DNA of 52,515 bases from a virus (IMGVR_UViG_2724679237_000006:1-52515), one strand, 5' to 3'; shown: positions 21,766-46,516, numbered from the stretch's first letter. Notes: generated by a model not told the origin, from the sequence alone. Made by a program: numbers and translations.

Positions 21766-23517
21766 ATGATTCAGGACGCTTTTGTGCGCCAGCGTGCGCG
21801 ACAACTTTACTGGCAGGGTTACCCGCCCGCAGAAATATCACGTCTGATGGGAATAAACCCGAACACGATTTATGCGTGGAAAAAACGCGACCAGTGGGAT
21901 GAAACGCCACCCGTGCAGCGTGTCACGCAGTCCATCGATGCGCGCCTTATCCAGCTTACTGAAAAACAGAATAAAACAGGTGGTGACTTCAAGGAAATAG
22001 ACCTGCTGACCCGGCAGCTTAAAAAACTGCATGATGGCCAGCCGGATGCGAAGGCCACAGGAAAGAAAGGCCGGGCGAAAAAACTTAAAAATCATTTCAC
22101 GCCGGAACAGATTGCCGCACTGCGGGAAAAAATTACCAGCAGGCTGGCCGGACATCAGCGCAAATGGTTTGAGGCTATCGGTGCCTGTGAGCGTGCCGGA
22201 GTTACTGACAGGATGATTCTGAAATCCCGACAGATTGGGGCGACCTGGTATTTTGCACAGGAAGCACTGCTGATGGCGTTACGTGACGATGTGGCACAAC
22301 CTTACCAGCGTAACCAGATTTTTTTGTCAGCGTCGCGTCGTCAGGCGTTCCAGTTTAAAAACATCATTCAGAAGGCTGCATCTGAAGTTGATGTGGAGCT
22401 GAAAGGGGGCGATAAAATTATCCTCTCCAACGGCGCAGAGATGCATTTTCTCGGCACTTCTGCGGCCACCGCGCAATCGTACACGGGGAATCTGTATTTT
22501 GATGAGTTTTTCTGGACGGGGCGTTTCACAGAGCTGCGCAAGGTGGCCGCTGCTATGGCAACGCTGGATGGTTTGCGGTGTACCTATTTTTCCACGCCAT
22601 CAAGTGAAACACATGAGGCGTATGCATACTGGAATGGTGATCGCTGGAATGAAGGGCTTCGTGCTCATAAACGTCAGCATTTTGATGTGAGCTGGAATGC
22701 ACTTCATAACGGCCTTATCTGCCCTGACTACATCTGGCGGCAAATTGTGACGCTGGAAGATGTGGTCAATCAGGGATGGACGTTAACCAGCATTGACAAA
22801 ATCCGACGCAATAACACTGAAGACGAGTTCCGCAATCTCTATATGTGTGAATTTGTTCGCGAAGGGGAATCGGCATTTAACCTGAATATCCTGATTGGCT
22901 GCGGTGTTGACGGATACGACGACTGGAAAGACTGGAAACCTTTTGCTCCCCGCCCGATGGGGAATCGCCCGGTATGGATTGGGTATGACGCAAACGGCAG
23001 CAGTGGCAACGGCGACAGCGGCGCTGTGTCCGTGGTGGTTCCTCCGGCTGTTCCTGGTGGCCGTTTTCGAACGGTGGAGACGCGACGCGTTCAGGGGCTG
23101 GAATTTGAAGAACAGGCCAGAGTCATTGAAGAGTTCACGTATCGCTACAACGTGGAACACATCGGCATTGATGTGACGGGCGGGAACGGGGAGGCTGTTT
23201 ATCAGATAGTGAAACGGTTTTTCCCTGCGGCTATCCCGTACACCTTCACGCTGTCATCAAAACGGTCGCTGGTACTGAAAATGCTGCAAATAATGCGTGC
23301 CGGACGGTGGGAATACGATCGCGCTGAACGTGAGCTGGTTGCGGCCTTTAACGCCGTGCGTAAGGTAAAAACGGCGGGTGGTTTCATTACTTACGAAACG
23401 GACCGTGCTAGGGGGATCAGCCACGGCGACCTTGCGTGGGCAACCATGCTTGCAGTCATTAACGAACCGATTGGCGGCGAAGGAGAAAACGAGCGTTTCA
23501 CGGTTATGGAGTTCTGA
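21766..23517 (+). CDS. P: Terminase ATPase (large) subunit P
   Basis: 583 aa, divergent from O, followed by portal. Confidence 0.85.
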   Translation: MIQDAFVRQRARQLYWQGYPPAEISRLMGINPNTIYAWKKRDQWDETPPVQRVTQSIDARLIQLTEKQNKTGGDFKEIDLLTRQLKKLHDGQPDAKATGKKGRAKKLKNHFTPEQIAALREKITSRLAGHQRKWFEAIGACERAGVTDRMILKSRQIGATWYFAQEALLMALRDDVAQPYQRNQIFLSASRRQAFQFKNIIQKAASEVDVELKGGDKIILSNGAEMHFLGTSAATAQSYTGNLYFDEFFWTGRFTELRKVAAAMATLDGLRCTYFSTPSSETHEAYAYWNGDRWNEGLRAHKRQHFDVSWNALHNGLICPDYIWRQIVTLEDVVNQGWTLTSIDKIRRNNTEDEFRNLYMCEFVREGESAFNLNILIGCGVDGYDDWKDWKPFAPRPMGNRPVWIGYDANGSSGNGDSGAVSVVVPPAVPGGRFRTVETRRVQGLEFEEQARVIEEFTYRYNVEHIGIDVTGGNGEAVYQIVKRFFPAAIPYTFTLSSKRSLVLKMLQIMRAGRWEYDRAERELVAAFNAVRKVKTAGGFITYETDRARGISHGDLAWATMLAVINEPIGGEGENERFTVMEF

Positions 23518-24563
23518 TGAGCAGAAAAAATAAAAAAGTGCGCATGAGTTCACGCATTGATCTCGCTGATGTGCTCAGGAAAGAATCGTCGCTCAGTGCA
23601 TTCACATTTGATGGTCCTTATCGCCTGACTGGGCATGACCTGCTGGACAATATGTACTGTGCTGATAACGGGCGGTGGTATGAAACCCCGGTGGACTGGT
23701 ACGGTCTGGCAAGAGCTGCCCGGCAAACGTCCTGGCATCAGTCTGCGCTTTACTTTAAGCGCAATGTATTACTCGGTTGCTACATCCCGCACCCGTTGCT
23801 TTCCCGGCAGGATTTCTCGGCGCTGGCGCTGGACTGGTTTGTGTTCGGTAACGCATTCCTTGAGCTTCGAAGCAATATGCTCGGCGAACCGCTTAAATTA
23901 CGGCACGCCCTGGCGAAATACATGCGACGCGGAAGCGATCTTGAATCATGGTGGTATGTGCAGGATGGTAAGGACGCGTTTCAGTTTCGCCCTGGTAAAG
24001 TGTGCCACCTGATGAATCCTGACATTAACCAGGAAATCTACGGCATGCCGGAATATCTCGGCGCATTACTCTCGGCCAGCCTGTCTCATTCGGCGGACAT
24101 GTTCAGAAAACTGTATTACGACAACGGATCCCACGCCGGGTGCATCATCTACATCGGTGCAGCGCAGGTAAACCGCGAAAGCATGGACTCCCTGAAAGAA
24201 ACGCTACAGGGTGCACGTGGTGGTGGTGCGTTTAAAAACGTGCTCATTCATGCGCCCAACGGGGGCAAAGAGGGGGTGCAAATTTTGCCGTTCCAGCAGA
24301 TCACCGCAAAGGATGAGTTCATGAATGTTAAGGCGGCATCCCGTGATGATGTGCTGGCTGCGCACCGCGTTCCGCCGCAACTGATGGGGGCGATGCCGGG
24401 TGAAAAAAGTGCGTTTGGTGATGTGGAGAAGGCCGCGCGGGTTTACGCAATTAACGAGCTGATGCCCGTCATGGAGGCCATGAAGCACATCAATGACTGG
24501 CTGGGCGAAGAGGTGATCCGCTTTAACCCTTACGCACTGTTAGACACCCAGCCCACAGCCTGA
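23517..24563 (+). CDS. Q: Portal protein Q
   Basis: 348 aa directly after P (ATG overlaps the P stop). Confidence 0.85.
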   Translation: MSRKNKKVRMSSRIDLADVLRKESSLSAFTFDGPYRLTGHDLLDNMYCADNGRWYETPVDWYGLARAARQTSWHQSALYFKRNVLLGCYIPHPLLSRQDFSALALDWFVFGNAFLELRSNMLGEPLKLRHALAKYMRRGSDLESWWYVQDGKDAFQFRPGKVCHLMNPDINQEIYGMPEYLGALLSASLSHSADMFRKLYYDNGSHAGCIIYIGAAQVNRESMDSLKETLQGARGGGAFKNVLIHAPNGGKEGVQILPFQQITAKDEFMNVKAASRDDVLAAHRVPPQLMGAMPGEKSAFGDVEKAARVYAINELMPVMEAMKHINDWLGEEVIRFNPYALLDTQPTA

Positions 24564-24587
24564 CGCGCTTCGCTTGTCTGCTGCTTC

Positions 24588-24612
24588 GCCGGGGCATAAA
24601 AAATTTATGCCC
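24588..24612 (+). other. Perfect hairpin (ggggcataaa-aaa-tttatgcccc) downstream of Q
   Basis: 10-bp perfect inverted repeat; no strong T-run, so function unclear (terminator or cos-region structure). Confidence 0.4.
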
Positions 24613-24984
24613 CGACTCTCCAGCTCCTGTATCAGTCAGATAATTTCACGACGCCTTCCAGTTTATCGCCACCATCGACGGTCAGACTCTTACGCAATCC
24701 CACCGCGTTGACTGTATGTTCTCGCCGCCTCAGTGCGATTTTGACGGCCTTACCTTTCAACCCATCAAATCAAAAACCCTTACGTCTTTTTCACGCTCAG
24801 CGTGAGAAATACAGCCATTCTGTTGTGTCGCTGCGACATCGCTCGGGGAATGCTATTTACCCCCTGAAACGCGGGCTGTTCCCCCGTCACCTGCGCGCAG
24901 AAAAAACGCGTTTTTTTGTGCACGCACGGATCCTTGACGGATCCAGCCACCACGCGGGCCGGAAGGGTAAAAAGTCGTTCAAAA

Positions 24985-25017
24985 AAATTGTGCAAATTTG
25001 TGCACTATTGTGCATTG
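24985..25017. repeat. Three phased TTGTGCA direct repeats (attgtgcaaa / tttgtgcact / attgtgcatt)
   Basis: 10-11 bp spacing, immediately distal to the parR terminator; candidate protein-binding iterons. Confidence 0.4.
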
Positions 25018-25022
25018 AAATA

Positions 25023-25043
25023 AACGCCCTGGAGGAGGGCGTT
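25023..25043 (-). terminator. Terminator downstream of parR
   Basis: Stem aacgccct / agggcgtt with loop ggagg; T-rich tract follows on the minus strand. Confidence 0.5.
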
Positions 25044-25096
25044 TTGCTCATCTATTTATAGCCTTGCCCCTTACTGGCCAGCGCCCTGATGTTGTG

Positions 25097-25408
25097 TTAT
25101 TCGGGAAATAACGCCCGGATATTTCCGGCTATCTGACTGGTTATCTGTGCGGTGGGCGCTGGCTGTAACATGTGGCGTTCTGCCCTGGTTTGTGTCACTG
25201 ATAACGCCTCATCATCAGCCCATGCAGACAGTCGGTAAGCCTCTGCCGGATTCATTTTCAGAAGTGCCAGCCCGGCCAGAAAAGCCACGCGTTGGCCGCT
25301 TTTGCGGGCTTCTGGTGTAAGGCTGTCCAGCCAGTCGCATGCTTTGCCTTCGTTCTTGACGGCGGCTGGCTTCAGATAGAAACTTATTCTTCTGGTTAAT
25401 GTCGCCAT
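25097..25408 (-). CDS. parR: ParR-like centromere-binding adaptor
   Basis: Aligns with plasmid R1 ParR as recalled: ISFYLKP...CDWLDS...ER......A.LAGLAL....P and C-terminal I.GNIRALFP. Confidence 0.8.
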   Translation of the reverse strand: MATLTRRISFYLKPAAVKNEGKACDWLDSLTPEARKSGQRVAFLAGLALLKMNPAEAYRLSAWADDEALSVTQTRAERHMLQPAPTAQITSQIAGNIRALFPE

Positions 25409-25414
25409 GGAGGG

Positions 25415-26374
25415 TTACTCCTTATCCATAGCGTACAGACCGTTAACCAGAGCAAACTGTGGCACCCCGTCTGTGATGAAATTCGCATTGACTCCATAGA
25501 CTTCATGGACTGCGGGTGCCACAATCTCCGCTCCTCCACCGACAACCAGCACCCGCCCGTAACCCGAAAAGCCCGCGAGTGCGCGGATCACGCGTTGTTT
25601 TAGTGTCTCCTCCTTTTCACGAATAACTGCCATCAGGCTGTTGTAATGCGCGTCATTGTGGATGTGCCGGCGCAGCCAGGCTTCATCGTGACGATGTTCA
25701 ATAACGGTACTGGCGACGTGGTGACTGGTACGCATGCCGTTGGCGGCCATCACCGACAACACGGCATCGGTCATCAGGGAAACGCCCACATGTGGATCGC
25801 AAAATACCTGGCTGATGCCTGCCAGTTGCCCCTGAACCTTTGCCACATCCAGCGTTGTTCCGCCTAAATCCACAATCAGCAGAGATTCAAACGGACTCAT
25901 GTCAGCCAGTGCCTTAAAGCCAGCCGGAATGGATTCAGGCATAACCCGCACGTTGCGGATAGTGAATGCTTCACCGTTCTGGTACTCCACAGGGCGCAGG
26001 ACATTCGCTTTTTTGCGGTTGATGTTGGCCATGTCCGGCTGTGCGTTTGTATCGAAATACTCGCTCAGTGGCAGAGTGACAACCACGTCCACTTCCTGTG
26101 GTGTGATACCTGATTTGACCAGCGCGTGATGAATGGCAATGACATTCACATCGCTGTACTGGTATTGCGTGTCGGTCGTCTGGACAAAGCGATCGCTGAC
26201 CGGATCAAAACCATAGCGCACGCCATCAAGCATGTAGTTCGCGGGCTGCGTGCCACCGAACGGCGCAGACCATTCCGACTTGAAGCTGTTCGGGCTGATG
26301 GCGTTGCGGCGTTCGCCGTTCTCAGTCCATGCCAGCTTGATGTTGGTGGAGCCGTCGTCGATGCAAATTTTCAT
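25415..26374 (-). CDS. parM: ParM actin-like segregation ATPase
   Basis: MKICIDDGSTNIKLAW...ISPNSF...YSDVNV.A.HHAL..SG......VD.V.T.PL.E......IDLGGTTLD...GGGAE match R1 ParM/StbA along the full length. Confidence 0.9.
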   Translation of the reverse strand: MKICIDDGSTNIKLAWTENGERRNAISPNSFKSEWSAPFGGTQPANYMLDGVRYGFDPVSDRFVQTTDTQYQYSDVNVIAIHHALVKSGITPQEVDVVVTLPLSEYFDTNAQPDMANINRKKANVLRPVEYQNGEAFTIRNVRVMPESIPAGFKALADMSPFESLLIVDLGGTTLDVAKVQGQLAGISQVFCDPHVGVSLMTDAVLSVMAANGMRTSHHVASTVIEHRHDEAWLRRHIHNDAHYNSLMAVIREKEETLKQRVIRALAGFSGYGRVLVVGGGAEIVAPAVHEVYGVNANFITDGVPQFALVNGLYAMDKE

Positions 26375-26402
26375 GTCGATTTTCCTTATGTTGATTAATT
26401 AA

Positions 26403-26516
26403 TCGTTTACGGGATTCTGAAATCCCGCTTTTGCCTGTTTTGTGCGCGTTTCATATATCGCGGCGTGTTTTTCGCTCATTTACGGGATTTGTGAATCCCG
26501 TTTCTGTCTGTTTTTT
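26403..26516. repeat. parC-like centromere: two ~40-bp direct repeats each with a 16-bp palindrome, upstream of parM
   Basis: tttacgggattctgaaatcccg...ctgtttt (26404-26442) and tttacgggatttgtgaatcccg...ctgtttt (26476-26516); inner palindromes gggattctgaaatccc and gggatttgtgaatccc. Confidence 0.55.
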
Positions 26517-29271
26517 GTTTTCGCTGGTCAGGCCACCGCAGCAGGTCTGCTTTGCGGCGGGCGCGTTCAGTGGTTTCACTGATTCTCTGTGCGTGCTCTG
26601 CGTCACGGATGGTGCGCAGCATGTCAGAAAGTACGGTAACGGGTGTTTTCATGGTGTTCTGGTCCTGCTGAATTGTGGATGCCAGGCGTGCGGCGGCTTC
26701 TGGGTCTGATGCCCCGAGCTGTTTCAGATAGCTGGAAACCGGGTTATGGCGGATTTCCGTGCTGTTTACGCCGTGATTACGGCTCAGGCGCTGCCAGAGT
26801 TGTGTGATTCGGCTGTCCGGTCGGGTATCCGGTTTACGTACAATTTCAAATCCCTGCGGTGCAATGATGCTGCCGTCAACGTACAGACTGCCGCCCCGTA
26901 ACAGGTGCTGCATCTGTTGTTCACCGATATGCAGGCCGAGAGATTCGGCAGACTCCCGCCATTCTTTAGCGAGTAACTCGTGGTTATCAGGCAAAGGCCG
27001 CGGCTGTTTGCGGCTCTGTGTCCAGTTCTGCATTTCATCACTGTTGTTTTTTGCCTGTTTGTCACGCAGCGAACGCATCAGCGCCCGGCTTTCGTGCCGT
27101 TTCAGTGAGCGCATCCATTCATCCACATCAACGCCGTCAGGAAGCTGCGGCCACGGTGCTGGCCGTTCTTCCGGCTGTTCTGTCCCGTTGTTGTCCGTTT
27201 CCTGTACACGGGGACAGTTATTGCCACGAGTCCAAGGGGCGGCAGGGCCGCCCTGAAGGTCAAAACCATTTTCGCGGGCGCTGTCTTCCGCTTCCGGTTT
27301 ACGTCTTACCAGCTTCCAGTTATCCGGGTGCGTGCACACGCGGGAAGACTCCCCGATTTGTGGCGACCAGATCCCGTAAATCTGTACGCTTTGCTCGCCG
27401 TAATCGTTCAGCTCTTCTGCGAGGTCGTAGGCGGTGCGAATCAGGTAATCCTTGCGTGGAACAAGTACGCCACCCTGTTTCTCAATGTAGGTGGCAAAAC
27501 ACCCGGCATCAGCGGCAGCGAGTACCGCATCCATTGCGTCATTTTCCAGACGTTGTGGACCTTCCGGGTTGCGGGCCATCTGACTGGCAAGGCGGCGGAG
27601 TTCACGCCATACTTGACGGGAGGGGATACCAAAGAACTGGAACTGGCGGACGCGGTGAAGGCGCGCCCAGCCGATGGCGCGTTCCACGCTCTCGGCCATT
27701 GATTTTCCGGTTTCGTGATCAACGCGTGGCTTGCCTGTTTTCGGGTCAATGCCATCCACGGCGCGGCTGTCCAGGTTCTTTCCGATGTAGGTGGCGATGT
27801 AGCTGGTCGGCGTACCTTTCGAACCGTCGACGTACTCTGCCTTAAAGCGCGGAGTTATGTCATTGCCCAGCTCGTGGCGGTCTTCGCGAATGGCAATATC
27901 ACGGGTGATGTCCACGATGCTGTCGATTTCTTCAGGATGTGCAAAGACCATCATGTGCCAGTGCACGGTGCCGTCATGGTGTGGCTCCACCGTGCGGATG
28001 CCATACCAGCGCAGGCCGTCGCGATTCAGTTTTTTGCGGACCGCCTTAAAAAAAGTGTTAACCAGGTAATCACTGGAATCGCGCATGGTGGCGCCGTTCC
28101 ATTTGGGATTCGGATGACCGTTCTCTGTTGTAGCGTGGTATTTTGACGGGCAGGTGACAGTCAGAAACACCGCTCTGTCGCCACGGGCTTCGGCCAGAAG
28201 TTCCAGTCCCTTCATGGTGGCCATCATTTCTGCCTTACGGTGGACCGGGTTACTTACTCCCGCGTAATACACTGTCTCGAGATCAATCGTGAACCCGTCT
28301 TCATTTTCCAGCATGAAACTTTTCAGGAAATCGCGTGTTTTCTCGCGCTGTGCGCGAAATTCACTTAATGCGTCCTGACTCAGATAGGGTGATGTTTTTC
28401 TGGAAACCAGACAGGCAGCGCGGAGTTGTTCCTCTCTCCATTCGCAACGTAAAAGCCACAGTTTGCGTTTCCACCAGTCCGCACAGGTCAGGCGGAGGAT
28501 TGCACCCGGCAGCAGTTCCGTGTCCGGTTCGTTCTTCCGGTCTTTGTCTGTTGTCAGTGCGTCATAATGCGGCGGCACTGTGTGCAGATGTAACGCCATG
28601 CGGGCCAGCATCTGATACGCCTTCAGCGTTATATCCATGGTCAGCTCGCCGTCGGTCGCGCCACAGCCATCGCAGAGTTTTTCGAAGGTGCTGCTGAACA
28701 TTGCCGCCGTCATGACGGCCAGCGTCTGTATCTGGTGCTTGTTGAGCTGTGGCAGGTACAGCAAATCGTCCAGACGTTCACGTCCGGCAAGGGAGCGATA
28801 ACCCGGAGTCAGCCAGCGACGGTCGGTGCGGGCCAGGCGTTCGAATATTTTGCGCAGGGTTCCGCTCGCATAGCGTTCCGCCTGCTGGTTCTTTTTGCCT
28901 TTCTGGTGGCCAGATTCCTGTTTTTTGCGCAGGAAAGAGAGATGGCGGATAAGCGGATCACGCAGATAGGACGGCAGCAGACGCAGCGAGGCCATGGCTT
29001 CATCCACCGCACCGCGTGCCTGCTTTCTGGCTTCTCTTGCCAGTGTGATGACTTTGTCCTGTTTTTCCTGTGCGTCCAGGCTTTTATTAATCAGATTGCC
29101 CAGTGGTGCAGCGGAGAACGCCGCATCAGCCATTTCCTGGCGGCGCTCGTTCTCTGCCCGGTAGGCATCCAGCCAGGAAGAAAGAAGGGAGGGGCGGACA
29201 GGCTCCCCCGTTCCCTCGCGACCGACTGCATGGCGTGGTTGTTGCCAGTCTCTGATGTACTCCGTTGCCAC
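26476..29271 (-). CDS. A: Replication initiation endonuclease, gpA-like (HUH rolling-circle initiator)
   Basis: 931 aa; HHDGTVHWHMMVF (HUH motif) and SYIATYIGKNLD (catalytic Tyr region) as in P2 gpA. Confidence 0.8.
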   Translation of the reverse strand: MATEYIRDWQQPRHAVGREGTGEPVRPSLLSSWLDAYRAENERRQEMADAAFSAAPLGNLINKSLDAQEKQDKVITLAREARKQARGAVDEAMASLRLLPSYLRDPLIRHLSFLRKKQESGHQKGKKNQQAERYASGTLRKIFERLARTDRRWLTPGYRSLAGRERLDDLLYLPQLNKHQIQTLAVMTAAMFSSTFEKLCDGCGATDGELTMDITLKAYQMLARMALHLHTVPPHYDALTTDKDRKNEPDTELLPGAILRLTCADWWKRKLWLLRCEWREEQLRAACLVSRKTSPYLSQDALSEFRAQREKTRDFLKSFMLENEDGFTIDLETVYYAGVSNPVHRKAEMMATMKGLELLAEARGDRAVFLTVTCPSKYHATTENGHPNPKWNGATMRDSSDYLVNTFFKAVRKKLNRDGLRWYGIRTVEPHHDGTVHWHMMVFAHPEEIDSIVDITRDIAIREDRHELGNDITPRFKAEYVDGSKGTPTSYIATYIGKNLDSRAVDGIDPKTGKPRVDHETGKSMAESVERAIGWARLHRVRQFQFFGIPSRQVWRELRRLASQMARNPEGPQRLENDAMDAVLAAADAGCFATYIEKQGGVLVPRKDYLIRTAYDLAEELNDYGEQSVQIYGIWSPQIGESSRVCTHPDNWKLVRRKPEAEDSARENGFDLQGGPAAPWTRGNNCPRVQETDNNGTEQPEERPAPWPQLPDGVDVDEWMRSLKRHESRALMRSLRDKQAKNNSDEMQNWTQSRKQPRPLPDNHELLAKEWRESAESLGLHIGEQQMQHLLRGGSLYVDGSIIAPQGFEIVRKPDTRPDSRITQLWQRLSRNHGVNSTEIRHNPVSSYLKQLGASDPEAAARLASTIQQDQNTMKTPVTVLSDMLRTIRDAEHAQRISETTERARRKADLLRWPDQRKQKTDRNGIHKSRK

Positions 29272-29276
29272 GCCGA

Positions 29277-29642
29277 CTACTCCGCCTTTCCGCTCAGTGC
29301 ATTGTGGCAGACGGTAGCCAGCCGCTGGATTTCCTGCATGGTGCTCTCTGTGCTGGCATAACGGTGTGTTATGCGAATGCTGTCAGCAATTACATCAGCA
29401 ATCAGAGATGAAGTTCGCTGGTAAATACCCAGTACGGAAGGCGTGCCGCTTTCGATGCGGGAAAGTGTGTAATCCTCCTGGCAGCTACCAACCATGTAGC
29501 GCCCGTCAATAACAATCTGGCCGTCCGGGAGCTGCTGTTCCGGCAGTGATTTCAGATACATTGCATAGCGGTCGAGAACGCGAATACCAAAATCGCGCTC
29601 GGTTTTCAGCAGGTAATCAAAAAAGTCTTCGGCGAGAATCAT
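29277..29642 (-). CDS. Hypothetical early-region protein
   Basis: 121-aa ORF immediately upstream of A on the same strand. Confidence 0.4.
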   Translation of the reverse strand: MILAEDFFDYLLKTERDFGIRVLDRYAMYLKSLPEQQLPDGQIVIDGRYMVGSCQEDYTLSRIESGTPSVLGIYQRTSSLIADVIADSIRITHRYASTESTMQEIQRLATVCHNALSGKAE

Positions 29643-29783
29643 TGCGGCAATCCTCTTGTTGCAGATGTGCGAAGGCCTCTTGCCGCAAGGTGCAGGAAAG
29701 GCCCGGAACAGGAATTAACGGAGTTTGTTTTGCTGCCGGATGAGCTGCTGAAGCCCGACGTGGTTTCCGGCAGTTGGAGGTGC

Positions 29784-30029
29784 TCATGCTCTGATTTCTC
29801 TCAGTAGCTGGTTGAACATCTGGGTTAGAGGGTTGCTACACCCAAACGGCATCGGGTTTACCTGATAAGAAAAGCGACCGCCTGTTTTGCGCTCTTTTCT
29901 TATGACTGAACCGCTGCGCCAGAGACGGCGTAGCTCCGCATTAATGGTTGTGGTTGGTGTATTCAGTGCTGCGGCGATTTCTCCACCGCTACAACCCGGA
30001 TTGGCAGCGATGTAGTCCAGAATGGTCAT
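29784..30029 (-). CDS. Small winged-helix-like DNA-binding protein (hypothetical)
   Basis: 81 aa, ILDYIAANPGCSGGEIAAALN...LRRLWRSGSV resembles a wHTH. Confidence 0.4.
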   Translation of the reverse strand: MTILDYIAANPGCSGGEIAAALNTPTTTINAELRRLWRSGSVIRKERKTGGRFSYQVNPMPFGCSNPLTQMFNQLLREIRA

Positions 30030-30280
30030 CTGCGTGACTCCTGTACCTGTCTGATAAGATTCACCTGCACCACGTTGGTGGCGCAGAAGTAAGTACCGTC
30101 AGTGAGATAGATGTGATGTGCATCCTTTTCTGAACGGTGTTTGTCGATTGTGGTAATCAGGCGTTCGTCAACTTCGTATTCACGTCCTCTGGAGGTGAAA
30201 CGAACGACAGGAAAATGCTTAATTGCCATTACGCCTCCTTGGCGTGTGCGAATACCTCCGCGAATGCGGATTGTTTTCAC
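30026..30280 (-). CDS. Hypothetical early-region protein
   Basis: 84-aa ORF; start may be the internal Met (MAIKHF). Confidence 0.35.
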   Translation of the reverse strand: MKTIRIRGGIRTRQGGVMAIKHFPVVRFTSRGREYEVDERLITTIDKHRSEKDAHHIYLTDGTYFCATNVVQVNLIRQVQESRR

Positions 30281-30425
30281 ATTTTCTTATTTAACCTGGA
30301 GTCTTATTTGCGCGGTTATTCTTCAGTGAAAAAGCGTTCAATCTTTTTTACTGAATTAATAATTCGCATAATCCCAATAGCGCAGGCCACCGAAATAATC
30401 AGAACAAGCCATGAGATAAATATAC

Positions 30426-30668
30426 TCATGCAATATTTCCCAGTTTATATGGCTCAATATGGTCCCCGTTTTCTGCGGCGCAGACGAGTACGGAAAGCTC
30501 GTCGAGCGCGTCCGGGTCGTCAACGTAAAAAGCCGTGTCGTATATACTCTTGATAGCTCTGGTCAATGACTCTCGGGCTGCGCGTTCAGCATGAGCGCCT
30601 GATGCGTTTAAGCGAAAATGAAAGCGCTCAAGTGCTTTATTGACGAGAGTTTTATATTCTTTATCCAT
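30426..30668 (-). CDS. Hypothetical early-region protein
   Basis: 80-aa ORF in the early operon. Confidence 0.35.
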   Translation of the reverse strand: MDKEYKTLVNKALERFHFRLNASGAHAERAARESLTRAIKSIYDTAFYVDDPDALDELSVLVCAAENGDHIEPYKLGNIA

Positions 30669-30679
30669 CGCAACGCCCT

Positions 30680-30958
30680 TTAATCTGCCTTCTGAATTTC
30701 AGCTTCTGAATCCATGCAGATAATTTCGAGATAGGGTTTATCGCTATTAACCTGACGTGCTTTTTCAGCTTCTCTAATAATTTCGCATACGGGTTGATAT
30801 GGAATCTCTACGGTCAGGCGTGTGCCGTTCAGATAAATGTAAGTGGCCGTGCTTTTATCTACCGGAACCACTCCATCAATAGCTGATGCGCGCAACAACA
30901 GCTCACCGCGAAAATCAATAAAGCGGATAAATACACCCTGAGCATGGTCTTTGGTCAT
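30680..30958 (-). CDS. Hypothetical early-region protein
   Basis: ORF 30680-31057; likely start at MTKDHAQ (30958) to avoid overlap with the upstream gene. Confidence 0.35.
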   Translation of the reverse strand: MTKDHAQGVFIRFIDFRGELLLRASAIDGVVPVDKSTATYIYLNGTRLTVEIPYQPVCEIIREAEKARQVNSDKPYLEIICMDSEAEIQKAD

Positions 30959-30968
30959 AAAGCACCTG

Positions 30969-31319
30969 TTATAAATCAGCCTGTTTAATGAAATTCTGTC
31001 CACGCAGCAGACGATCAACCGTGCGCAGAGCTTCGTACAACGTGAAATCCTGTCCAAACTGATTGTCGCCGTTGCTCAGAGCAAAAATGCGGTTTCCGGT
31101 AAATGGGTTGCGTTGGCATCTGTGAACCACGATTCCAGCTTTCTCAATCAGCCAGGTGTGTTCACCAATTTGTTTTACGGGATGGCCATCAGGTGTAGCG
31201 TGTGTTTCGCTCAGGCTGTAGCGAGTGTTGCTACGTGATGTACTGATAGCGAAACGGTTAGCGTGGCGTTCTACGCCATTACGAAATTTGGAGTATGGAA
31301 TATTAGTGTTTTTTTTCAT
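30969..31319 (-). CDS. Hypothetical early-region protein
   Basis: 116-aa ORF. Confidence 0.35.
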   Translation of the reverse strand: MKKNTNIPYSKFRNGVERHANRFAISTSRSNTRYSLSETHATPDGHPVKQIGEHTWLIEKAGIVVHRCQRNPFTGNRIFALSNGDNQFGQDFTLYEALRTVDRLLRGQNFIKQADL

Positions 31320-31340
31320 GATGATGCTCTGTTCATTGTT

Positions 31341-31544
31341 TTAGCTGTTAGCCAAAGCGTCTTTTAACATCGCCACAAGGTTTACTTCAGGCTTTTCCAT
31401 TTTGGCGCGTTTGGGTCGGATAATAATTCGACCGTCAGCCAACATCTTTTTGCATGTATTAAGAGGGATACCTGTTATCTCTGCATATTTCTGCAGGGAT
31501 ACATAGGGGGCATTCACATTGATATTGATGGTTATACCTGACAT
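31341..31544 (-). CDS. Small HTH DNA-binding protein (Cox/Apl/CII-like regulator candidate)
   Basis: 67 aa; LQKYAEITGIPLNTCKKMLADGRI looks like an HTH. Confidence 0.45.
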   Translation of the reverse strand: MSGITININVNAPYVSLQKYAEITGIPLNTCKKMLADGRIIIRPKRAKMEKPEVNLVAMLKDALANS

Positions 31545-31560
31545 CCCATTAGCCTCCTGA

Positions 31561-31767
31561 TCAGGAAGATTTGTTTTGTTCTTTCTGGGTTAGCTCTAGG
31601 CCGCGAAGGAAGATCATGCGCGCCATGTTAGAGGATGAGCGTTGTTCTTTAGCTGCCATTTCATCAATGACGGCTCGCTCCTCGAGGGACAGCCGAAGTG
31701 CCAGTCTTGGACCTGTGGCGGTGTTACGCGGAATGCGTGATCTGGTATCGTGAAGAACTTGTTTCAT
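31561..31767 (-). CDS. Ribbon-helix-helix (CopG/Arc-like) regulator, first gene of early operon
   Basis: 68 aa; LRLSLEERAVIDEMAAKEQRSSSNMARMIFLRGLE fits the RHH pattern. Divergent from the C-like repressor gene. Confidence 0.5.
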   Translation of the reverse strand: MKQVLHDTRSRIPRNTATGPRLALRLSLEERAVIDEMAAKEQRSSSNMARMIFLRGLELTQKEQNKSS

Positions 31768-31809
31768 AGTGATATATTGTGATCATCTAATAGCTCGTGA
31801 AATCATTTT

Positions 31810-31827
31810 GGTATCAAAAAAGATACC
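31810..31827. promoter_or_regulatory. Perfect palindrome ggtatc-aaaaaa-gatacc in the divergent early/repressor promoter region
   Basis: 18-bp dyad 15 bp upstream of the repressor start codon; candidate operator. Confidence 0.45.
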
Positions 31828-31842
31828 TGTCAAGGTTTTTGT

Positions 31843-32247
31843 ATGAAAAATGATATTGGTCAGAGGTTGCGTGAGGAAAGGGAAAGATTGGGACTTAGTC
31901 AAGTTGCTATGAGCGACATTGGTGGAGTCAAAAAGCTAACTCAGCTTAGATATGAGAAAGGAGATAGCTTTCCTGATGCTGCGTATTTGGCAGCGCTGTC
32001 TCGTTTTGGCCTTGATGTTCAGTATGTTGTGTTGGGAATTCACTCACCTGAAACTTATAACGATGATGAGCAGGAGTTGATTACTCGCTTTCGAGCAGCT
32101 TCGTTAGATGTGAAAAACGCGGTGATCGGGGCTTTAAAAGGTGCGGCCAGTGAAAAGGAAACTCAGCCATCAGGACGTGAGTTAAATATTTCTGGCGGTA
32201 ATAACCGTATCGCTGGGCGTGACTATAACGAAACTAAGGGTAGGTGA
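31843..32247 (+). CDS. Immunity repressor, XRE-family HTH (C/CI-like)
   Basis: N-terminal HTH (LREERERLGLSQVAMSDIGGVKKLTQLRYEKGDSFP); divergent from the early operon and on the same strand as integrase, as for P2 C. Confidence 0.65.
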   Translation: MKNDIGQRLREERERLGLSQVAMSDIGGVKKLTQLRYEKGDSFPDAAYLAALSRFGLDVQYVVLGIHSPETYNDDEQELITRFRAASLDVKNAVIGALKGAASEKETQPSGRELNISGGNNRIAGRDYNETKGR

Positions 32248-32262: not shown

Positions 32263-32913
32263 ATGGCCGTCAACTCAAACGGTTCAAACAATCGCGTTGC
32301 TGGGCGTGATTTTCACGAAAAGAATATTCAGATAGGGCGATATGATGGTTCTCATACCGTCAATATCGCAATCCCTTCGAATAATGATGATGACGATCGC
32401 CCTTTGCTTAAGGCTCAGCGTAAGGAGCTAAATAGCTTGGTTGCTGCTATTGCAGAAGCTAGCAATACTGAAGCGTTTATTATTTGGCAAAAAGTACATG
32501 CGGAGATTGGTGTAGCTGGTATTGATGATATGACAGTAAATCAATATAAAACAGCGGAGAGTTTTCTGCATGCAATGCTTGAGCGATGTAAAGATCATGA
32601 TGCCTGTAAGGCTCTTGTAAGTTTATTACTACGTAACAGTGAAGACTGTGGACTTCGACAAAAACTTCTGCGGTATTGCCATATCAATTTCGGTACAGGA
32701 CGTTTAAACGATCTTACTCGTTCTCAGTTGCAGTCTGCATTGTCGTGGTTAGAGCAACAATCGGTATCAAGCAACACAGAGAATTCGACCTTACCAGAAG
32801 TCCGACTTCGTGCTTCAGAATTAATCCGACTTTATCCAAAAGAAATAATATTCTTTATCTGCGTAGGGGGGGTGGTAGGTGGTGCCATTTCTAGGATGTT
32901 TTTTAATTTGTAA
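32263..32913 (+). CDS. Hypothetical protein with C-terminal TM anchor (cargo gene between repressor and integrase)
   Basis: 216 aa; N-terminus repeats the motif NNR(V)AGRD(F)HE found at the repressor C-terminus; C-terminal hydrophobic segment IIFFICVGGVVGGAI. Confidence 0.45.
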   Translation: MAVNSNGSNNRVAGRDFHEKNIQIGRYDGSHTVNIAIPSNNDDDDRPLLKAQRKELNSLVAAIAEASNTEAFIIWQKVHAEIGVAGIDDMTVNQYKTAESFLHAMLERCKDHDACKALVSLLLRNSEDCGLRQKLLRYCHINFGTGRLNDLTRSQLQSALSWLEQQSVSSNTENSTLPEVRLRASELIRLYPKEIIFFICVGGVVGGAISRMFFNL

Positions 32914-32942
32914 TCTTACTTGAGCTAAATTGAGGTAATGGT

Positions 32943-33290
32943 ATGAAAGTAAAAAATGTTCAACTATTAGTTACTTTTTTATCTATGTTTTCTTTTTCTG
33001 CCGTCGCAATGCCTTTTAAAAATATTGAACGTGAGAGTTTCAATGGGGTATGGCCATTTAATACTGATGAGGTTCAGTTACAGTGTCTAGATGGTAATCC
33101 TTATGTGATGAATTTTGACGATAATAAGTTATATGCGCTTACAGGTTTGGCTCGAATAAAAGGTAAAACATTTGGTGCGTTACCGTTAGATAACAATAAT
33201 CCATTTTGGCTGGATAATGATGCCGCCCCAGGGTTAAAAAAGAATCTGGGAGATGTCACTAAGGCTGCATTTGATTTATGTGATAAGTAA
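32943..33290 (+). CDS. Small secreted protein of unknown function (cargo gene)
   Basis: 115 aa with signal peptide (LLVTFLSMFSFSAVA); AT-rich coding sequence. Confidence 0.45.
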   Translation: MKVKNVQLLVTFLSMFSFSAVAMPFKNIERESFNGVWPFNTDEVQLQCLDGNPYVMNFDDNKLYALTGLARIKGKTFGALPLDNNNPFWLDNDAAPGLKKNLGDVTKAAFDLCDK

Positions 33291-33295
33291 CTAAA

Positions 33296-34297
33296 ATGTC
33301 GGTTCGTAAGATTCCATCAGGTAAATGGCTTTGCGAATGTTATCCTTACGGGGCATCGGGAAAACGTATTCGTAAACAGTTTGCGACAAAAAGTGAGGCG
33401 CTCTCTTATGAGCGCCGTTTAATGAATAGTAGAGTTGGAGACGAGTTTCAAGATGGTTCTGGTCCTCGTCTTTCTGAGTTGGTTGCTCGTTGGTTTGAGA
33501 TGTACGGTAAAACCTTGTCCTCTGGTGCAGAGCGCAAAGTCAAACTTGAGTCTATTTGTTCCAGGCTGGGAGATCCATTTGCTTCTCAGTTTGACAAAAA
33601 TATGTTTGCTACTTATCGGGAAAGGAGGTTATCAGGAGAATGGAATCCCAAGGGGAAGAAAAAACTTAGTGAAGCAACCGTTAATCGCGAGCAGTCATAT
33701 CTACATGCTGTTTTTGCCGAACTGAAGCGCCTTGGGGAGTGGTCTGGTGAAAACCCCCTGACTGGCATTCGCAAGTTTCGTGAGGAAGAAAAGGAATTGG
33801 CGTTTCTGTATGTAGATGAGATTGAACGCCTTCTGATTGCGTGTGATGAGTCACGGAATAAAGATTTGGGGGTTGTTGTCCGTATTGGGCTTGCGACTGG
33901 TGCTCGGTGGAGTGAAGCTGAAGGATTAAAGCAATCTCAAGTGCTGCCCGGTCGAATCACATTTGTTAAAACTAAAGGAAAGAAGAACCGCACTGTACCG
34001 ATTTCACCTCAATTGCAGGCTATGCTTCCTAAAAAACGAGGAGCGTTATTTTCACCATGTTATGAGGCTTTTGACGCTGCAATTAAGAGAGCGAAGATCG
34101 AGCTTCCTGATGGGCAATTAACTCATGTGCTACGTCACACGTTTGCCAGTCATTTTATGATGCGGGGAGGAAATATTCTTGTGTTGCAAAAAATACTGGG
34201 GCATAGCGATATAAAAATGACTATGCGTTATGCGCATTTTGCTCCAGGTCATTTAGAGGCTGCAGTTGAATTGAACCCTTTTGACAATAGAGGGTAA
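33296..34297 (+). CDS. int: Tyrosine integrase, P2 Int-like
   Basis: 333 aa; GKRIRK.F..KSEA, GARWSEA, RITFVKTK..K.RTVPIS, LRHTFASHFMM.GG.I..LQ.ILGH....MTMRYAHFAP match P2 Int as recalled, including catalytic R..H..R..Y. Confidence 0.9.
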   Translation: MSVRKIPSGKWLCECYPYGASGKRIRKQFATKSEALSYERRLMNSRVGDEFQDGSGPRLSELVARWFEMYGKTLSSGAERKVKLESICSRLGDPFASQFDKNMFATYRERRLSGEWNPKGKKKLSEATVNREQSYLHAVFAELKRLGEWSGENPLTGIRKFREEEKELAFLYVDEIERLLIACDESRNKDLGVVVRIGLATGARWSEAEGLKQSQVLPGRITFVKTKGKKNRTVPISPQLQAMLPKKRGALFSPCYEAFDAAIKRAKIELPDGQLTHVLRHTFASHFMMRGGNILVLQKILGHSDIKMTMRYAHFAPGHLEAAVELNPFDNRG

Positions 34298-34403: not shown

Positions 34404-34458
34404 TTTAAAATCCCTCGGCGTTCGCGCTGTGCGGGTTCAAGTCCCGCTCCGGGTACCA
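34404..34458 (+). other. 55-nt 3' fragment of a tRNA-Leu gene (anticodon loop to CCA), an attachment-site core
   Basis: tttaaaatccctcggcgttcgcgctgtgcgggttcaagtcccgctccgggtacca matches the 3' portion of an enterobacterial tRNA-Leu (UAA, leuZ-type) as recalled; upstream sequence cannot form the acceptor and D arms. Confidence 0.75.
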
Positions 34459-34502
34459 TGGGAAAGATAAGAATAAAATCAAAGCAATAAGCAGTGTCGT
34501 GA

Positions 34503-34525
34503 AACCACCTTCGGGTGGTTTTTTT
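34503..34525 (+). terminator. Rho-independent terminator after the tRNA fragment
   Basis: Stem aaccacc / ggtggtt, loop ttcg, followed by ttttttt. Confidence 0.7.
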
Positions 34526-34588
34526 GTATCTTCTTTCTCATTTCCGAAGATGCGTCCGAAGATGATTTTTCTCTGGACGCATCATCAT

Positions 34589-35605
34589 TCATTTTCTCTG
34601 GCCACCAACTACGGGCACTACTTTAACTTTCCGGTCATATGCTGCTGTCTGTCGCGGGTTCTTATGCCCGGAAATTGCTTGCTTCTCTTCCAGGCTGCCT
34701 TCCAGATCAGAGATACCTTTTGCTTTCAGATCATGAAATGTGAAGTCTATTTGCAGATGAGGATATTTTTCCTGTGCTGCCGCTTTGACATCACGCCAAC
34801 GAGAGTTAAAACCATCACGGGTATACTTGCCACCGGTAGTTTGATGAATCACAAACAGGCTACTGATTCCCGTTTTTAATGGCAGAGAACGAGCCAGAGC
34901 TATCGCTTTCTGCAGACGAGGCGACCAGGCTTTGATTTGCTTAACGCCGGTTTTTCCCTGACGAATGTAGATCCCGGAATCGAACAGCTGGTCTTTCTGC
35001 AATGAAAGTACATCACTCTGTCTGGCCACGCATAAGTAGGCAATCTCCATTGCTACGCGAACAACATCAGGAGACACTTCATAAACGGCCTGATATTCTT
35101 CATCCGTAATATAACGTTCGCGAGCTTTCTCTTTAAACTGTTTAACTCCCTGACAAGGATTCCTCTGAACATAACCTCGTTCATAACCCCAACGGAATAC
35201 CCGGGACATAAAGCTTTTTTCCCTGTTTGCCTGAGTTCGGCTTGATAAACCGCGTTGATCCATATAGCGCCGAATATGTTCAGGTTTGATTTTATCCGGG
35301 TCGATCTTCCCGAAGACAGGCAGAACTTTTCCGGAATATTTTGTGTAGTCTTTCCGGGTTTCGACTGCCAAATCCATAAAATCAGGGGAGGTCATGAATT
35401 GTTCCGTGAGCGCCTGAAAAGTATTTCTTTCTTTTTCGTCACCGACCGCTTTTTCATATGCCAGCCATACGGCTGATCGTGGTGCATCCAATGCGCACAG
35501 GCGTATCGCTTTGTTATCTTTATTCCTGAATTCGTAGGCCGCTTTGCCCTGGTAAACACGAGGCGGCATCCAGTTATCTGCTGGGTTCTTTCTCTTTCCG
35601 GCCAT
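34589..35605 (-). CDS. int: Tyrosine integrase (lambda Int family) of a second element
   Basis: ORF 34589-35635; N-terminal arm-binding-like MAGKRKNP..NWMPPRVY and C-terminal catalytic region (HDLKAKGISD...GH....TAAYDR). Confidence 0.85.
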   Translation of the reverse strand: MAGKRKNPADNWMPPRVYQGKAAYEFRNKDNKAIRLCALDAPRSAVWLAYEKAVGDEKERNTFQALTEQFMTSPDFMDLAVETRKDYTKYSGKVLPVFGKIDPDKIKPEHIRRYMDQRGLSSRTQANREKSFMSRVFRWGYERGYVQRNPCQGVKQFKEKARERYITDEEYQAVYEVSPDVVRVAMEIAYLCVARQSDVLSLQKDQLFDSGIYIRQGKTGVKQIKAWSPRLQKAIALARSLPLKTGISSLFVIHQTTGGKYTRDGFNSRWRDVKAAAQEKYPHLQIDFTFHDLKAKGISDLEGSLEEKQAISGHKNPRQTAAYDRKVKVVPVVGGQRK

Positions 35606-35837
35606 TAAATATTGCTCCAAAATCAGGTTCATCATCTTTTCGCGTCGTCACCTCCTGTAAATTGCGAAATTTTATTGGGTTCATGAAATGGCCCCAGGTT
35701 GTTTTTGGGTGTCCGTCAGCCCTTTCCATGAAGAAAATTCCAGCCCGGCGAAGAGCCTCACATTGCTTTGATTTAAGTGGGCTTCCCGTCAGCTCGACCA
35801 TTTCTTCTCTGGTGATTATGTCGTGATCGCTTTTCAT
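35574..35837 (-). CDS. Excisionase-like / small DNA-binding protein
   Basis: 87-aa ORF immediately upstream of and overlapping int; ITREEMVELTGSPLKSKQCEALRRAG is HTH-like. Confidence 0.4.
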   Translation of the reverse strand: MKSDHDIITREEMVELTGSPLKSKQCEALRRAGIFFMERADGHPKTTWGHFMNPIKFRNLQEVTTRKDDEPDFGAIFNGRKEKEPSR

Positions 35838-46292: not shown

Positions 46293-46516
46293 ATTGACTT
46301 AGAAAAAGTCCGGGGCTATAGTTTCCGCGCAGCCGCAAAATCGGTTGCCGGGATTGGCGTCCCGGATATCTAAGTGACGCATAGCCGCGTTAGCGGTTTT
46401 TTTATGTGTTAGGCACGGCCACATTCGCATTATGGTGGGCTGTGTGGGGGCTTCTGTGGAAGCGCCGGGTTCACTTAGCCGGTTACGCCAACCCTGCACA
46501 GCTCACCACCAGATGA

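Follow-up and report, generated by a model that had tools for sequence, protein, structure and literature searches.

The window analysed here is a stretch of 52,515 nucleotides (nt) from a virus (IMGVR_UViG_2724679237_000006:1-52515), which contains a P2-family prophage. Between the replication gene A and the portal gene Q of this prophage lies a cassette resembling the type II partition systems (ParM/ParR/parC, or ParMRC) of plasmids such as R1, with a gene for an actin-like ATPase, a gene for a small adaptor protein and, upstream of both, two palindromic repeats. An earlier note, drawn from the sequence alone, had assigned the cassette to positions 24985-26520 and read it as variable cargo of a possible phage-plasmid. 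Sequence comparisons confirmed that a ParM/ParR/parC-type module is present and intact in this prophage.

The partition genes and the candidate centromere

The core of the cassette consists of two genes on the minus strand, parM (25415..26374), which encodes an actin-like segregation ATPase of 319 amino acids (aa), and parR (25097..25408), which encodes an adaptor protein of 103 aa and lies downstream of parM after a gap of 6 nt. Analysis of ParM revealed both Pfam domains of the family, StbA_N (6.7e-82) and the ParM C-terminal domain (4.1e-65), together with a full-length match to the R1 ParM structure (1mwk, E 1.6e-91) and 46% identity with R100 ParM, also over the full length. The phosphate- and adenosine-binding motifs DDGSTNIK, DLGGTTLD and GGGAE are retained. 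The alignment with the R1 protein claimed in the earlier note is thus well founded. For ParR, the claimed kinship with plasmid ParR holds at the family level, the protein belonging to Plasmid_stab_B (PF10784, 3.6e-24), but a direct comparison with R100 ParR gives a modest 36% identity across the 55 N-terminal residues (E 1e-9), and a sequence search of the PDB with ParR gave zero matches. In an alignment of 31 homologues, residues 1-67 are conserved, including the N-terminal RRISFYLKP strand, whereas the linker formed by residues 68-93 is hypervariable and is followed by a conserved tail, NIRALFPE. This layout fits the one expected of a DNA-binding adaptor with a ParM-binding C-terminus.

The position of the cassette between gene A (26476-29271, minus strand) and portal gene Q (23517-24563) was correctly described. 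Its proposed extent was too generous at one end: the par genes and the repeats do fall within 24985-26520, but 24985-25096 lies outside the cassette, save for a hairpin at about 25023-25043, and holds this terminator hairpin and part of the cos-proximal block, with no par functions.

Upstream of parM, the repeats with internal palindromes that had been noticed earlier are indeed found, as two direct repeats of 42 nt that are 79% identical and 73 nt apart. Candidate parC repeat 1, the promoter-proximal copy, spans 26403..26444 and carries the palindrome CGGGATTCTGAAATCCCG at 26410-26427; repeat 2 spans 26476..26517 and carries the palindrome CGGGATTTGTGAATCCCG at 26483-26500. Between them lies a spacer of 31 nt (26445..26475), which reads GCGAAAAACACGCCGCGATATATGAAACGCG on the sense strand. 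Both repeats contain an 18-base-pair (bp) palindrome of the form CGGGATT-N4-AATCCCG, and these two are the only perfect copies of this motif in the window. Contrary to the earlier description, repeat 2 overlaps the last codons, at the 3' end, of the gene A reading frame.

Conservation of these repeats was assessed in a comparison set made of the window and 80 related IMG/VR loci (81 sequences). Among the 67 unique upstream sequences, the approximately 145 nt ahead of the parM start codon, both repeats included, are almost invariant. The stop codon of A, by contrast, takes eight different positions across relatives: in 61 loci it precedes the parM ATG by 76 nt, in 5 (window included) by 101 nt, and in other loci by 105, 75, 153, 251, 24 or 133 nt. 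Relative to P88, the window has a 2-nt deletion at the 3' end of A (26476-26560) that places the A stop 25 nt further upstream, and in strain TUM9757 a 1-nt deletion shifts the frame of A. Conservation of the DNA despite this shifting reading frame means that the repeat DNA is under constraint, and not the tail of the A protein. In a Hafnia relative, whose ParM is 91% identical, the 3' end of A, the spacer and the flanks have diverged; the GGGATT/AATCCC arms of both palindromes are kept together with the preceding A/C-rich tracts, and the 4-nt centres vary.

The plasmid R100, two IncI plasmids and the P1-like phage-plasmid D6 carry their own system-specific repeats at the same place upstream of parM. 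ParR alleles that are about 50% identical overall adjoin essentially identical repeats, and the N-terminal strand is retained in these alleles. Two conserved palindromic repeats upstream of parM, although unlike R1 in architecture, fit a centromere, to which we infer that ParR would bind. Alongside this candidate centromere, the locus has the two proteins of a type II ParMRC system, an actin-fold ATPase bearing both StbA domains and the nucleotide-binding motifs, and a small adaptor directly downstream of parM that is recognised by PF10784 and by its conservation pattern. The helical phasing of AAAC motifs in the candidate parC was also considered, but this signal was marginal and post hoc (34/2000 shuffles, other motifs not significant) and was not used.

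The cassette shares with parMRC (stbAB) of R1 and R100 the order cis site, parM, parR, the location of repeats upstream of parM, and the ribosome-binding sequence CATAAGGA. It differs in being carried by an integrating phage of the P2 family, R1 and R100 being plasmids, and in having a cis site that overlaps the 3' end of gene A.

Conservation and distribution of the cassette

The cassette DNA is 90-93% identical to that of Escherichia phage P88 and other Xuanwuvirus (Peduoviridae), and the prophage ParM is 91.6-95.3% identical to the ParM proteins of these phages, where the cassette has the same neighbours, A and Q. DNA similarity and the shared gene order P, Q, (cargo), parR, parM, A place the prophage in Xuanwuvirus. 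ParM, or a partition protein, is already annotated in P88-like genomes, and the cassette is in this respect ordinary and known.

Within the comparison set, parM is intact in 80 of the 81 sequences and parR in 77, most of the other copies being cut by contig ends. Pairwise Nei-Gojobori estimates of the ratio of non-synonymous to synonymous substitution rates were 0.067 for parM and 0.27-0.29 for parR. All 80 related loci contain the cassette, with A directly upstream wherever upstream sequence is included. Complete Escherichia coli genomes gave a similar picture: A-gene DNA was found at 1786 places and the cassette at 1532, which corresponds to a linkage of about 86%. The comparison with related genomes that had been suggested therefore speaks against the view of the cassette as variable cargo, and parMR is a conserved backbone module of P88-like phages under purifying selection.

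The 1532 places are distributed over 1327 of 5426 complete E. coli genomes, with up to 4 copies in one genome. The cassette is thus among the most widespread ParMRC loci in E. coli, yet it resides in an integrating phage; roughly one complete E. coli genome in four contains a P88-like phage. For annotation, this means that a chromosomal "plasmid segregation protein ParM" usually marks a P88-like prophage.

A search of 50,697 phage records detected ParM of this family only in P88-like phages and in D6. Within the phage clade, ParM proteins share at least 91% identity, but no more than 53% with plasmid-resident ParMs, which argues for an old phage lineage and not for a recent capture from a plasmid. 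Only six plasmid records contain a ParM more than 90% identical, and all six carry this prophage itself.

Exchange of the module between backbones was also seen. At one locus (L081), the same parMR, with a ParM 94-95% identical, is joined to a very different A protein (32% identical), and about ten loci (L043, L045, L046, L048, L050, L056, L064, L071, L074 and L079) combine the same parMR with a different portal (30% identical). Given this linkage to a divergent A or portal, the parMR module recombines into other Peduoviridae backbones. ParR itself exists in at least two allele classes that are about 50% identical overall, with a break in homology near parR codon 18. As parM and the repeats stay more than 90% identical, the middle of ParR must evolve or recombine much faster than its partners. 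The ParR of the window is a variant of its own, with a best database match of 91%.

Expression and proposed role of parMR

The parMR genes are co-directional with gene A. A promoter scan found no consensus sigma-70 promoter in or near the repeats, spacer included, where manual inspection revealed poor hexamers only. The only consensus promoter on the minus strand within 26300-32000 is TTGACA-17-CAAAAT (31805..31833), a candidate early lytic promoter that faces the repressor gene. No terminator-like site was detected on the minus strand between this promoter and parM, and the genes from the cox-like gene to parR lie on one strand with small gaps. Downstream of parR, a GC-rich hairpin, AACGCCCT-GGAGG-AGGGCGTT (approximately 25023..25043), is the probable end of the parMR transcription unit, although the terminator scan reported there only weaker overlapping or adjacent sites (plus strand, 25037-25049; minus strand, 25005-24990). 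This arrangement suggests that the early lytic operon ends with parMR, which would be expressed jointly with A.

We lean, with slightly better than even confidence, towards a functional type II module that is fixed in the P88-like replication region and acts on transient free circles of the phage genome. ParR dimers would bind parC, the pair of palindromic repeats immediately ahead of parM, and use their conserved C-terminal tail to capture the ends of ParM filaments; as these grow, they would push parC-bearing phage circles apart. With an operon that would run from the early promoter through the cox-like gene, small genes, A, parM and parR to the terminator, parMR would be produced with A at two moments when the genome is a low-copy free circle, namely between infection and integration, and once induction has led to excision. 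By distributing or holding on to the phage circles, the module would then prevent their loss or clumping; once the phage is integrated, the module would be repressed and of no consequence.

This role is favoured because the prophage assembles the same ingredients as the elements carrying srpMRC and AlpAC, that is, an integrase, the initiator A, a parMRC ending the replication operon, and hok/sok. The type II partition locus srpMRC belongs to the integrating SXT/R391 elements, and its SrpM and SrpR have only remote kinship with R1 ParM and ParR. Expression of srpMRC is confined to the activation programme, and together with a toxin-antitoxin module it makes loss of the excised, transient form less frequent (PMC4489591). 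SXT/R391 is similar to the prophage in its tyrosine integrase, in the transient rolling-circle-type replication of its excised circle and in a toxin-antitoxin module limiting loss. It differs in being conjugative and not viral, and in that srpMR form an operon with int, whereas the prophage parMR follow A. In the integrated prophage CGP3, the AlpAC system is switched on early and connects the circular phage DNA with actin-like filaments, and efficient replication of the phage depends on it (PMC4446434). Like the cassette studied here, AlpAC/alpS of Corynebacterium glutamicum CGP3 pairs an actin-like protein with an adaptor, which binds repeats upstream of the operon (PMC4446434, PMC5539076). 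In this case, the host is Gram-positive, the phage is of an unrelated type, the proteins fall outside the StbA/StbB families, and the role in replication was established experimentally, while the prophage cassette is known from sequence. If transient circles of P88-like phages are partitioned, a major coliphage group would join integrative conjugative elements and one actinobacterial prophage as carriers of active segregation, with a bearing on the establishment of lysogeny and on how prophages avoid loss after excision.

Several points weigh against this interpretation. First, about 14% of the P88-type A loci in E. coli have no megablast match to the cassette. Second, an AlphaFold2 model of the ParR monomer, built from the 31-sequence alignment, reached a predicted local distance difference test (pLDDT) score of 57, and a ribbon-helix-helix fold is unsupported at that confidence; a low value is expected for the monomer, since the protein is an obligate dimer. 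Third, the candidate cis site departs from the archetype, with two long repeats of 42 nt, 18-bp palindromes and no consensus promoter inside, in place of the ten 11-bp A/C-rich iterons that flank the promoter in R1 and R100. In R1-type par operons, autoregulation works through a promoter located in parC, and the lack of a consensus promoter in the prophage does not prove that a promoter is absent. Finally, the literature searched on the par genes of P88-like phages contained annotation-level mentions only and no experiment.

The role on transient circles ranks above three other explanations, which differ in where the cassette would act or in what the palindromes would be. According to the first, which we consider unlikely, the element is a true phage-plasmid whose integrated state alternates with a stable plasmid prophage, maintained by ParMRC partition, hok/sok killing and replication from A. 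The partition and hok/sok modules co-occur and are conserved in relatives, and a published screen for phage-plasmids by Pfeifer et al. 2021 (PMC7969092) detected P88, placed it among the putative ones and suggested, as a hypothesis, episomal and integrative states. Moreover, D6, a real P1-like phage-plasmid, has a related StbA/StbB pair: D6 StbA is 46.5% identical to the prophage ParM, and the D6 record itself mentions the similarity to P88 StbA. D6 is, on the other hand, a 91-kb plasmid prophage of the P1 type, and its upstream repeats are of the TCTCA type.

Against stable extrachromosomal maintenance stands the distribution of the cassette, since 1530 of its 1532 occurrences in E. coli are chromosomal. 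PLSDB, with its 72,556 plasmid records, yielded 7 matches, five of them prophages inside very large replicons and a single one, pZ1323PEC0009-2, a free phage-sized circle. This record, deposited as a plasmid, is a circle of 34,461 bp that comprises a whole P88-like phage with integrase, hok and ogr. Phages 99.7-99.9% identical to it, over the integrase-immunity region, are integrated in dozens of chromosomes, the top hits not including the assembly of its own strain. Several structural genes are missing from its PLSDB gene table, so that it may represent excised DNA assembled at low quality. The remaining match, a 26.7-kb "plasmid" of Shigella boydii, was rejected as evidence for a plasmid state, since this contig is linear and riddled with IS1. 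The phage P88 occurs integrated, as a mitomycin-inducible prophage bounded by attL and attR (PMC5285337), and the copy in the window abuts a 3' fragment of tRNA-Leu and a second integrase element. No separate (theta-type) plasmid replicon was recognised among the open reading frames (ORFs) scanned, the rolling-circle initiator A being the only candidate, and A, as a gene of the lytic operon, should be repressed in lysogens. Of the phage-plasmid proposal in the earlier note, the components thus stand, namely the rolling-circle initiator, the integrase and a hok/sok-like locus, but the lifestyle deduced from them, already proposed in print, remains weak and is disfavoured by the distribution. 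Rare or conditional episomes would be compatible with this distribution, but we do not favour them, and the cassette is probably not a sign of a plasmid lifestyle.

A broader proposal is that an R1-type actin system, possibly with hok/sok, keeps non-integrated P88-like genomes as partitioned episomes, whether as a facultative plasmid-like carrier or as an AlpAC-like organiser of lytic replication. We regard it as conceivable but doubtful; if true, it would provide the first functional ParMRC borne by an integrating enterobacterial phage.

The second explanation, for which we see little probability, treats the palindromes as RNA or transcriptional elements, such as hairpins or terminators at the A-parM junction, with ParR binding elsewhere. 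On the plus strand, both palindromes with their T-runs do score as terminator-like, and the sense RNA folds more stably than shuffled sequences (z = -4.9). A plus-strand transcript is, however, not expected at this place because of the hairpins at 24590-24614, after Q, and at 25023-25043, and the sense strand has no U-run after its hairpins. The conserved unit also reaches past the hairpin into the A/C-rich tract, other ParMR loci carry system-specific repeats at the same place, and an Rfam search of 24500-26700 matched no family.

The third and least probable explanation, that parMR is lysogenic-conversion cargo of benefit to the host or the integrated prophage, for example through incompatibility with ParMRC plasmids or related phages or through a tin/old-like defence, draws on the location between A and cos, the interval of tin and old in P2, and on the defence-type genes in neighbouring slots of relatives, but it is at odds with the presence of the cassette in every relative and at most A loci, with its orientation along A and the failure to detect a promoter of its own, both unlike old and tin, with the coexistence of up to four copies in one genome, with the lack of any PADLOC match, and with the distance from plasmid ParMs (at most 53% identity), which makes cross-reaction unlikely.

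The slot after parR and other features of the window

In P2, gene A is followed by orf91, by tin and old, which are transcribed towards A from their own start sites, and then by cos and Q. By comparison of gene order, parMR occupy an orf91-like position, co-directional with A, and the equivalent of the tin/old hotspot is the slot after parR. The claim that the cassette sits where P2 carries tin and old is therefore right for the A-to-Q interval as a whole, but the slot equivalent to tin/old runs from parR to cos, with the cassette beside it. ParM and ParR matched none of the PADLOC defence hidden Markov models, and parMR do not behave as P2 hotspot cargo, which is variable and either belongs to a defence family or is independently transcribed.

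The interval from parR to Q ranges from 521 to 2387 nt in 41 relatives. The window, with 533 nt, and its near twin (L008, 521 nt) are the shortest, and the slot is therefore empty in the window (approximately 25044..25096). P88 has two small genes after parR, and in relatives the stretch from parR to the cos-proximal block is filled by 0.5-1.9 kb of variable genes. These include an AbiL-like ATPase with an OLD-like TOPRIM protein, DUF3800/PDC-M04A, an RmrA-like helix-turn-helix-peptidase regulator with a PIN protein, a Fic/Doc pair, a ClpX zinc-finger protein and Ead/Ea22, among others. By its contents, the slot looks like a defence hotspot equivalent to that of P2, and for annotation it is this slot after parR that marks the defence-gene hotspot of P88-like phages.

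At the edge of the cos-proximal block, outside the par cassette, three TTGTGCA repeats follow one another on the plus strand with a 10-nt phase (24988..25014, starting at 24988, 24998 and 25008). Four of the seven TTGTGCA copies in the window lie within 24916-25014, and the phased triple keeps a fixed distance of 431-451 nt from the Q stop in most of the 41 relatives. The triple may serve as an array of sites for a packaging or regulatory protein. A possible cos site, ACTGTATGTTCTCGCCGCC, was noticed at 24711-24729, 148-166 nt past the Q stop and beyond the strong hairpin of Q (24590-24614). It mirrors the geometry of P2 (cosL at 1-19, tQ at 160-181, end of Q at 187) and ends in CGCC like the P2 cos, a resemblance that makes this assignment possible.

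Among the other genes of the prophage, A encodes a rolling-circle replication initiator (Phage_GPA, 4.2e-129) of 931 aa, compared with 761 aa in P2, and no Pfam domain was found past residue 503. The integrase of the P88-like prophage is located at 33296-34297. At the other end, the hok-type locus described in the earlier note is real, with a hok-like ORF on the minus strand at 950-1090 (HOK_GEF, 3.1e-7); a match to sok at 1102-1236 is sub-threshold (40.9 bits for a gathering score of 59). The stretch at about 100-250 resembles, by eye, the hok upstream region, with CCTCGGTTAAACA in common, and may be a second, degenerate hok locus.

After the integrase, a 3' fragment of tRNA-Leu (34404-34458) ends the prophage, and no complete tRNA was found anywhere in the window. 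Beyond this fragment, a second, divergent integrase gene lies on the opposite strand (region 34404-35635), which suggests two elements in tandem at one attachment site. As for the left attachment site, no match of at least 12 nt was detected between 1-1300 and the right end, and the tRNA-Leu core occurs once in the window; this junction is likely to lie outside the window or to differ. Matches to isrK and to C4 antisense RNA, immunity RNAs of the P1/P7 type, were found at 46316-46513, in the element that adjoins the prophage on its right. Finally, the region between the repressor and the integrase (32263-33290) contains two extra genes, one for a protein of 216 aa that has no significant Pfam match and one for a DUF2511 protein whose N-terminus is signal-like, and is probably a second cargo site of the prophage.

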